From assembly GCF_041886205.1 (NCBI RefSeq), contig NZ_CP169029.1: a stretch of DNA of 64,000 bases. One strand, given 5' to 3'. Positions 36,005 to 37,205 of the stretch are shown here, piece by piece. Below the pieces are notes generated by a model, which saw only the letters and a program-made list of their open reading frames with translations, was not told where the DNA came from and ran no database searches. Source of the DNA: Escherichia coli. GTDB taxonomy: Bacteria > Pseudomonadota > Gammaproteobacteria > Enterobacterales > Enterobacteriaceae. How positions within the stretch are numbered: position 1 is the first letter of the stretch; every line of letters begins with the position of its first letter. Both the position numbers and the translations under genes were made by a program.

Positions 36005-36256
36005 TTATTGGCTATCTGGAGAGATTTTATGAACATATTCCAATTTCCCCTTTGGATTTAATTCAACTATTCCTGCTAGGTATAACCAGTCAAGAGATAA
36101 AACAAAAATTGATATAGACATTTCAATTTTTTTCTTTGTTTCGTAAAAAAGATCTATCAATTCAATTTCATCGAAACGTTTCAGCGTATCTATAATAAAC
36201 CCACCGTTATAATATAAGCTATCTTTAGGATGAATGTCCTTTGGTAACAACATCAT
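36005..36256 (-). CDS. hypothetical protein, ORF B of AT-rich cassette (83 aa)
   Basis: ATGATG start immediately after an in-frame TGA, overlapping ORF A 3' end by 32 nt; low G+C; no recognisable motif. Confidence 0.45.
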   Translation of the reverse strand: MMLLPKDIHPKDSLYYNGGFIIDTLKRFDEIELIDLFYETKKKIEMSISIFVLSLDWLYLAGIVELNPKGKLEYVHKISPDSQ

Positions 36257-37205
36257 TCACTCCGTTAGGGTCCCTAAAAATTTTACAGCGTATGAACGCG
36301 TCCACTGCAAGTATACTAACACAAAGCTCCAGTTCCTCTAATGGTATTTGTGTAAAATTTGCACTTTTTCTGACCATTTCAACAGAGCTGTCAATTATTT
36401 TAAAAAATAACTCATCTCCAGTGTATTGTGTACTCAATTTTACGAAGATAGTTCTAAAGGAAGACAAAACTGAAAGGCTTGAGTTTTTACCCATCTGGTT
36501 GAACTCTGAATAAATGCGGGATACTTTTCCATGATGGATTTTGTAATCTTCAATAATATATTCAGCTGCATTCAAATTATTAAATGTAATCTTGTCAGTT
36601 ACATCGAATGGTTGCGGGAAGTCAGTAGTTTCAACATTAGAAAAATCCTCCTTAGCTAATATATTTATAACAGCAGCAATATTTGTTTCGATTAAAACAT
36701 TATCAGATTCCTCTTGTAACTCATTTTTTAGAAAACCGTGTATTTCTTTCTGTTTTGTTATGTCAAGATGTGAAATAACATTAAGTATCGATTTTACATC
36801 ATGAATATCTTGCTGCGGTATAAAAACCAAAGCATGAGGATTAGTGTAAGTTTTATTTCTTAAATCACTAGCATCTTTTGCAATTGATATAAATTTAAAC
36901 TGATGGCCTTTATATAATCTTAAGTCTTTGTTCAAGGCTGAATCAATTTTTGTTTTAGTTGCAGTTGATGAAACCTGTAATACTATCTTCCCATTCTCAT
37001 CGATAAGATCGATACCCTCAAAATTATGCTTCTCTTGATTAGTATTCTTTAGGGAATACCCAAATAATAAATTAAAGAAGTGAACATAAAAATCTTCACA
37101 ATGAAGATTATAGTTAAGAATATTTAACTTCCCTCTTAATTCAACGCTATAGCATAGCAACGTAAGCCTTTTCTCACATAAATCAAAATAAATAGATCTG
37201 TTCAC
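36225..37205 (-). CDS. hypothetical protein, ORF A of AT-rich cassette (326 aa, GTG start)
   Basis: GTG start with SD AAGGA 8 nt upstream; roughly one-third G+C in sampled lines; 254 nt downstream of the thrW 3' end; no Walker or other motif recognised. Confidence 0.6.
   Translation of the reverse strand: MNRSIYFDLCEKRLTLLCYSVELRGKLNILNYNLHCEDFYVHFFNLLFGYSLKNTNQEKHNFEGIDLIDENGKIVLQVSSTATKTKIDSALNKDLRLYKGHQFKFISIAKDASDLRNKTYTNPHALVFIPQQDIHDVKSILNVISHLDITKQKEIHGFLKNELQEESDNVLIETNIAAVINILAKEDFSNVETTDFPQPFDVTDKITFNNLNAAEYIIEDYKIHHGKVSRIYSEFNQMGKNSSLSVLSSFRTIFVKLSTQYTGDELFFKIIDSSVEMVRKSANFTQIPLEELELCVSILAVDAFIRCKIFRDPNGVNDVVTKGHSS

Follow-up and report, generated by a model that had tools for sequence, protein, structure and literature searches.

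Downstream of the tRNA gene thrW, a 64,000-nucleotide stretch of Escherichia coli DNA (referred to as the window) carries an AT-rich cassette that ends at a copy of IS1. An earlier note on this DNA described the cassette as a self-contained pair of open reading frames (ORFs) of unknown function, and as a candidate for an undescribed defense system. The questions raised by the locus are what its genes encode, whether the cassette is complete, and whether it can still act in defense. The cassette is very probably the 5′ two-thirds of a SMEK-type short Lamassu (ABC-3C) operon, which recently lost the ATPase gene lmuB to IS1 and is most likely non-functional.

Organization and composition of the cassette

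ORF A occupies positions 36225..37205 of the minus strand and encodes 326 amino acids. It starts with a GTG codon, and the Shine-Dalgarno sequence AAGGA is positioned 8 nt upstream (37214–37218). ORF B (36005..36256, minus strand) encodes 83 amino acids and overlaps ORF A by 32 nt. The coordinates, lengths, start codon, and good Shine-Dalgarno sequence reported for the two overlapping ORFs in the earlier note all check out. However, the description of a self-contained two-ORF cassette overlooked a third ORF, which starts with an ATG at 36036 on the minus strand and is cut by the terminal repeat of IS1. The third ORF overlaps ORF B by 32 nt, the same length as the overlap of ORF B with ORF A. 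The cassette is a three-gene operon with an amputated last gene, not a two-ORF unit.

The cassette adjoins thrW, a tRNA-Thr(CGT) gene and integration hotspot at 37459..37534 of the minus strand, which was identified by ARAGORN and by the Rfam tRNA model with a score of 71.8 bits. It is the sole RNA element detected by the Rfam scan in or near the cassette. The AT-rich spacer between thrW and ORF A (37206..37458, minus strand) is 253 nt long, in line with the 254 nt noted previously, and is 99.9% conserved in intact loci. A simple promoter scan of the cassette strand of this spacer did not identify a consensus sigma-70 promoter. The single “terminator” identified by a simple terminator scan is the end of IS1 itself.

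The G+C content of the region, determined in 400-nt windows between positions 36000 and 37400, is 0.295–0.343, compared with 0.50–0.60 in proA/proB and betA. The bin from 36 to 37 kb has a G+C content of 0.313, the lowest among the 64 one-kilobase bins of the window, which bears out the contrast with proA and betA drawn in the earlier note. Its remark that an integrase and an obvious att repeat are missing also holds: the 64-kb window contains neither an integrase gene nor a second copy of the 3′ end of thrW.

Identity and distribution of the encoded proteins

The ORF A protein is 100% identical to WP_001082070.1, named ABC-three component system protein by PGAP. Residues 11–144 (36774..37175, minus strand) match the Pfam family SMEK_N (PF21941), which has a probable restriction-endonuclease fold of the PD-(D/E)xK (SMEK/Mrr-like) type, with an E-value of 4.8e-38, and the NCBIfam model SMEK_N with 3e-33. 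Residues 175–310 (36276..36683, minus strand) match CTD10, “C-terminal domain 10 of the ABC-three component systems” (PF20275, 3e-32), a helical C-terminal domain of ABC-3C effectors. The AlphaFold2 model of the protein (mean pLDDT 82.6, pTM 0.82) has an alpha/beta N-terminal domain and an all-helical C-terminal domain. ORF A has the LmuA organization of an N-terminal effector domain fused to a member of the ABC-3C CTD families, and the gene, lmuA, is intact.

A profile constructed from 38 homologues of LmuA matches residues 2–164 to the structure 26bh_D, entitled “the Mrr domain from Kordia jejudonensis Mrr-APAZ pAgo”, with an E-value of 4.5e-19. Because of the homology of the SMEK domain to the Kordia Mrr domain, the protein also matches the PADLOC model “Aga_REase” (“Aga_REase-PNTD1-PNTD2”, 8.6e-23). 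Residues E37, D66, D69, Q77-V78-S79, and K86 do not vary within the family, and the Kordia domain conserves them as well. The motif is non-canonical, with Q-V-S replacing ExK, and DNase activity of SMEK-LmuA is therefore a prediction, not a demonstrated property; as a prediction it is well-founded. By homology, CTD10 is proposed to serve as a docking and oligomerization domain held by LmuB and LmuC.

The ORF B protein matches MC6, “ABC-3C system Middle Component 6” (PF20293), with an E-value of 1.5e-23, and is 100% identical to WP_196613384.1, which has the same PGAP name as the LmuA entry. Searches of ORF B against NCBIfam and PADLOC gave nothing significant, and its MC6 identity was therefore found only with Pfam. 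The alignment of orthologues indicates that they begin at the second ATG of the ORF (36253). As expected for LmuC, a small protein of an MC family encoded between lmuA and lmuB, ORF B lies between lmuA and the remnant of the ATPase gene, and lmuC is intact. A type II toxin–antitoxin module was also considered and rejected, as there was no significant match to a toxin or antitoxin family, and the match to VapB15 (E-value 0.24) is noise.

These strong Pfam and NCBIfam matches (SMEK_N and CTD10 in one protein, MC6 in the other) replace the earlier view that the function is unknown. The system is not undescribed either, since PGAP has already named the RefSeq entries to which the proteins are identical, and short Lamassu with a SMEK effector are described in PMC12663957. 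The more general guess that the cassette belongs to the anti-phage or conflict category was right: both ORFs encode components of Lamassu/ABC-3C.

Megablast of the cassette against 5,426 complete E. coli genomes identified it in 34 of them at a coverage of at least 80%, with 99.8–99.9% identity, and a few more genomes contain partial copies. Full-length lmuB is kept in 32 of the 5,426 genomes (0.6%), at thrW. Neither homology to a housekeeping family nor a core-genome copy of normal G+C content was found. The proposal that the cassette reached the thrW hotspot as horizontally acquired cargo is supported. The intact locus of strain M3 (L001) is composed of thrW, the genes encoding WP_001082070.1 and WP_196613384.1, and a gene for a 581-residue DUF2326 protein (WP_000470135.1). 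All three genes overlap, and the LmuA and LmuC proteins of the window are 100% identical to their M3 counterparts. A HigA-like gene and remnants of traJ, trbJ, and trbL come next. The HigA-like gene of the intact loci lies past lmuB in the opposite orientation, and the window does not contain it.

LmuA belongs to a family of more than 2,000 homologue clusters. All 120 of the matches listed combine SMEK_N with CTD10, mostly in proteins of about 321 residues, and they originate from Aeromonas, Yersinia, Photorhabdus, Pseudomonas, Rhodoferax, Delftia, Dyella, and other genera. Rhodoferax, Delftia, and Yersinia have overlapping genes in the order SMEK_N-CTD10, MC6, and DUF2326, and the contexts are unrelated: next to a Mu-like transposase, HTH and ankyrin genes, mutS, or an integrase together with AbiE. 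Homologues of LmuA with adjacent MC6 are also encoded on plasmids of Clostridium botulinum and Priestia. No LmuA homologue was found in 50,697 phage records. The lmuA-lmuC-lmuB unit is a mobile, conserved three-gene module.

Truncation of lmuB and the IS1 junction

The third ORF of the cassette contains the first 28 codons (MFIKSLQIANKDGVIRLIKFHAGLNLIV; 35953..36036, minus strand) of a gene for a 581-residue SMC-like ABC ATPase of the DUF2326/LmuB type. The lmuB stump is followed directly by IS1, beginning with the first G of the terminal inverted repeat GGTAATGACTCC. A tblastn search of the window with the full-length ATPase recovered residues 1–28 only; the other 553 codons are absent from the 64 kb. 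The 54-residue chimeric ORF that carries the stump has a weak match to LmuB (E-value 0.041), and the NCBIfam and PADLOC scans of it otherwise gave nothing significant. The earlier note recognized no ATPase signature in either protein, which is correct only for the reason that IS1 has left no more than 28 codons of the ATPase gene.

The full-length product of the third gene, as encoded in the M3 locus, contains DUF2326 at its C-terminus (Pfam, 2.4e-22), and matches to the PADLOC models PDC-M68B (2e-33) and LmuB (2.1e-11) cover almost all of it. Four orthologues that are 55–78% identical to the E. coli protein were aligned. They share the invariant Walker A motif GNNVGKT (G45-NNV-GKT51), the signature-like motif FSSGKKQ starting at F486, and the Walker B motif HFLLND (D520), which is followed by a lysine. 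A helix-rich middle region of approximately 250 residues separates the N- and C-terminal head motifs, and the orthologue sequences do not contain a CxxC zinc hook. The IS1 cut at V28 is upstream of Walker A, the signature-like motif, and Walker B. The SMC/Rad50-like ATPase of about 600 residues that characterizes LmuB is present in the M3 locus and missing from the window, which holds a remnant of a short-type Lamassu/ABC-3C member rather than a complete one.

The full-length ATPase, compared with PDB sequences by phmmer and profile searches, yielded coiled-coil noise and no solved Lamassu chain, and the MC6 profile did not match solved Lamassu chains among PDB sequences either. The equivalence of the ATPase and MC6 to LmuB and LmuC rests therefore on the PADLOC and Pfam models and on gene order.

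IS1 (35185..35952, plus strand) is complete, 768 bp long, and present in a single copy in the window, as established from its terminal repeats and the comparison of its flanks. The junctions have the structure …GGTATGCA / IS1 / AACGATCAA…, with a truncated gene on each side and no 9-bp target-site duplication, in agreement with the earlier assignment of IS1 to a deletion junction. The gene on the far side, outside the Lamassu system, encodes an AraC/HTH-type regulator (ykgA-like; 34545..35184, plus strand) that is C-terminally truncated by IS1. The ykgA-like gene is full-length (285 residues) in strain PT62, where IS1 is positioned past its stop codon. Neither of the two IS1 junctions is contiguous in any of the 5,426 complete E. 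coli genomes. The window diverges from M3 exactly at 35952, the terminal repeat of IS1, and the M3 island sequence downstream of lmuB is not present in the window.

Since a target-site duplication is absent, the junction points to an IS1-mediated adjacent deletion or to IS1–IS1 recombination. By either route, the deletion would have taken out the entire segment from codon 28 of lmuB to the ykgA-like gene close to betA. Intact loci are 99.9% identical at the DNA level and show no amino-acid changes, indicating that the loss of lmuB was probably recent, which may explain why lmuA and lmuC are still intact even though they are orphaned.

Strain USMARC-49610 also carries an IS1 in lmuB, 69 bp further into the gene and right after the Walker A codons. 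The sites differ, and an insertion common to both lineages was rejected. In USMARC-49610, a CP4-type island encoding antirestriction and YeeU/CbtA proteins separates thrW from the cassette, and a degenerate repeat of the 3′ end of thrW is positioned just upstream of lmuA. The Lamassu module is therefore outside the integrase-borne island. Decay is also seen in strain FDN-9, which has ISSen4 in lmuA, and in several genomes with a truncated lmuA or lmuB. The locus provides a clean example of the erosion of defense islands at the thrW hotspot by IS1-mediated deletion, and illustrates that the loss of a signature ATPase can disguise a known system as an orphan.

Predicted function and relationship to known systems

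Cryo-EM structures of the Cap4-type Lamassu DdmABC of Vibrio cholerae and LmuACB of Salmonella enterica have been determined (PMC12663957; bioRxiv 2025.03.14.643221). A single LmuA is gripped at its CTD by LmuC and the coiled-coil apex of two LmuB subunits; the resulting complex binds DNA ends, and in vivo it also binds the origin of phage replication (PMC12663957; bioRxiv 2025.03.14.643221). Mutations in the Walker A motif of LmuB and in the interfaces abolish defense, and LmuA alone is inactive in vitro (PMC12663957). Once liberated, LmuA assembles into a tetramer with non-specific DNA cleavage activity, and LmuA is responsible for the toxicity of overexpression (PMC12663957; bioRxiv 2025.03.14.643221). 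Chromosomally encoded DdmA that is free of its partners shows limited toxicity (bioRxiv 2025.03.14.643221).

By analogy, in an intact SMEK-type system MC6 would be the equivalent of LmuC, and two LmuB subunits and one LmuC would grip a single LmuA by its CTD, holding it as an inactive monomer. LmuA would be freed once DNA ends or replication intermediates of the invader are recognized and LmuB binds and slowly hydrolyzes ATP. The freed effector may oligomerize through its CTD and thereby bring the nuclease domains together, and the oligomer would degrade DNA indiscriminately, aborting the infection. In the window copy, the IS1-associated deletion is proposed to have taken lmuB after codon 28 and to have left lmuA and lmuC intact but orphaned. 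The copy is most likely inert for defense, because LmuB, both the sensor and the sequestering scaffold, is absent from the 64 kb. The limited toxicity of free DdmA is consistent with a lmuA-lmuC pair that may be tolerated by the cell.

It is conceivable that lmuA and lmuC form a self-sufficient defense or toxin module, with the SMEK-type LmuA as the effector, MC6 as its regulator, and no need for an ATPase. Both ORFs are intact with good translation signals, LmuA of Salmonella enterica (SalEnt) alone is toxic when expressed from a plasmid, and the auto-activation of LmuA upon overexpression does not depend on ATP hydrolysis (PMC12663957; bioRxiv 2025.03.14.643221). Furthermore, the USMARC-49610 lineage retains lmuA-lmuC after its independent IS1 hit. 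However, the DUF2326 ATPase is the overlapping third gene in every relative examined, the remaining 28 codons cut at the IS1 end are the mark of a recent amputation and not of design, and LmuB was required for defense in the tested Lamassu, where LmuA alone was inactive in vitro (PMC12663957). Since lmuB constitutes approximately 60% of the operon, repeated IS hits are expected from target size alone. The identity to intact loci at the DNA (99.9%) and protein (100%) levels gives no sign that selection has maintained the pair since the loss. A two-gene module is therefore very unlikely. A group of related proposals is likewise very unlikely: that the orphan pair is active without LmuB, as a low-level toxin or as a primed effector serviced in trans by another SMC-like ATPase elsewhere in the genome; that IS1 knock-outs of lmuB are selected; or that the Walker B “D-K” sequence marks a sensor that only binds ATP. 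If they were selected, the knock-outs in the window and USMARC-49610, located at different sites, would inactivate a costly system that activates itself, but spare the effector.

The chemistry of the effector leaves somewhat more room for doubt. The cassette may be a Lamassu remnant in which SMEK is an RNase or a non-catalytic nucleic-acid-binding module, with a chemistry unlike that of the Cap4-type systems; this is improbable. The pAgo literature treats SMEK as a nuclease domain, and guided DNA cleavage by the Kordia SMEK-APAZ/pAgo heterodimer was reported by Kim et al. 2020, as cited in PMC10810196. That the ORFs are chance frames, or core housekeeping genes of unusual composition, has virtually no likelihood. 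AT-richness inflates ORF lengths in general, and nothing else speaks for it, whereas the Pfam E-values of 1e-23 to 1e-38, the thousands of homologues with conserved synteny, and the rarity of the cassette among complete E. coli genomes (well under 1%; the 34 of 5,426 at the coverage threshold given above) refute it.

The preferred interpretation, a degraded SMEK-type Lamassu, makes the cassette a broken copy of a system that is already catalogued and annotated, with nothing new in it. The proper label of the locus is lmuA, lmuC, and an lmuB pseudogene cut by IS1, rather than a hypothetical pair of genes or a new candidate defense system, and the locus matters little beyond its correct annotation. 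A literature search found no experimental test of SMEK-type Lamassu, with SMEK and Lamassu named together in PMC12663957 alone, so that both the defense and the nuclease activity of the subtype are predicted from homology. Intact alleles from E. coli, such as that of strain M3, would be convenient material for such a test.

The ABC-3C systems are part of the Lamassu superfamily (PMC10586767; bioRxiv 2025.03.14.643221). Cap4-type Lamassu differ from the operon in Pfam families throughout: DdmA of V. cholerae is composed of Cap4 and CTD7, and DdmB is MC3, whereas the operon encodes SMEK_N, CTD10, and MC6. The LmuB and LmuC profiles lack a sequence-level match to the solved Cap4-type chains, and the mechanism is transferred by analogy. 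The PADLOC candidate system PDC-M68 shares the ATPase, as the orthologous protein matches PDC-M68B over its full length, but neither ORF A nor ORF B matched any PDC-M68 model. The SMEK/Mrr-APAZ partners of short pAgo proteins (Kordia jejudonensis, PDB 26bh) have a homologous N-terminal nuclease domain with the same E/D/D/Q/S/K positions. The Kordia partner joins the domain to APAZ and is under the control of guide-loaded short pAgo, whereas the C-terminal half of ORF A is CTD10, its neighbors are MC6 and DUF2326, and its control is attributed to the SMC-like ATPase and MC6. The two systems share the effector module alone, and ORF A is not a short pAgo partner.

Lamassu are divided into long and short types according to the length of LmuB, approximately 800 and 600 residues, respectively (PNAS 2025, PMC12663957), and the LmuA effector domains specific to the short type are SMEK, HNH, and lipase (PMC12663957). 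The intact orthologues of the cassette agree with the short Lamassu with a SMEK effector (PMC12663957) in their domain composition, overlapping lmuA-lmuC-lmuB order, LmuB length of about 580 residues, and lack of a CxxC zinc hook. They have a lysine after the aspartate of Walker B, in contrast to the published short-Lamassu pattern hhhhD[Q/S/T/E] (PMC12663957). The window copy differs from this type in its incompleteness, with lmuB cut to 28 codons.

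Position of the Lamassu cassette at thrW

In the locus of E. coli USDA-ARS-USMARC-49610 (L002, NZ_CP104123.1), a degenerate repeat of the thrW 3' end (TTCCTATTATCG-CACCA) is located just upstream of lmuA, at positions 5960-6000. The repeat is preceded by a CP4-type island that carries antirestriction, JAB/RadC-like, and YeeU/CbtA genes. thrW is the integration site of this island, and the Lamassu module is positioned beyond its attR. Therefore, the cassette is older flank cargo, outside the integrase-borne island.

In intact loci, lmuB is directly followed by a gene of the HigA antitoxin family without an annotated HigB partner (L001, the E. 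coli M3 locus, 12223-12480, minus strand; TIGR02607, 2.1e-19). Fragments of traJ, trbJ, and trbL come next. The HigA-family gene together with these fragments suggests that the flank of thrW is what remains of a conjugative element after decay.

IS1 insertions in lmuB and the far side of the window junction

The lmuB gene of L002 also contains an IS1 insertion (7454-8343), which is positioned 69 bp downstream of the cut site in the window, directly after the Walker A codons (GNNVGKT). The far flank of the L002 element is formed of polysaccharide-export genes, unlike that of the IS1 in the window. The two insertions are independent events, and lmuB has therefore been inactivated by IS1 at least twice in E. 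coli.

On the far side of the window IS1, the other end of the element removed the last ~80 codons of a ykgA-like AraC/HTH regulator gene (34545-35189, plus strand). The E. coli PT62 copy is full-length (285 aa), with IS1 past its stop, and IS1 adjoins the gene in several further strains. Between the HTH gene and betA, the window has a G+C content of 0.40-0.43 (33817-34545). The PT62 annotation gives a small aldo/keto-reductase pseudogene fragment at the corresponding place, indicating that this stretch is another decayed remnant.

Other features of the window

Two further 1-kb bins of the window have low G+C content, 9001-10000 (0.379) and 27001-28000 (0.380). The former lies just past tRNA-Ser(GGA) (8591-8671), the vicinity of which is possibly another island site. 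Four matches to Rfam naRNA4 (CssrE, a REP-derived nucleoid-associated RNA) exceed the gathering score, all on the minus strand (51544-51716, 52381-52458, and 55104-55181), and include a tandem pair at 51.5-51.7 kb.

Comparison of the Lamassu proteins with known systems

The Foldseek search of model ma894b3083b06 against the PDB returned no significant match. The best was an integrative cross-linking-MS model of Bacillus subtilis YydD-YydB (E 0.056). If YydD is a DUF2326 ATPase, the YydD-YydB model would provide independent evidence for contact between the effector C-terminal domain and DUF2326.

The intact lmuB orthologue, absent from the window, is encoded at L001 10423-12168. Its Walker B motif, HFLLND followed by Lys (D520-K521), is invariant in all four aligned orthologues. 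Judging from this motif, ATP hydrolysis by L001-type LmuB may be very slow or may not occur. The published Walker B motif of short Lamassu systems is hhhhD[Q/S/T/E], whereas in L001 LmuB the Asp is followed by Lys.
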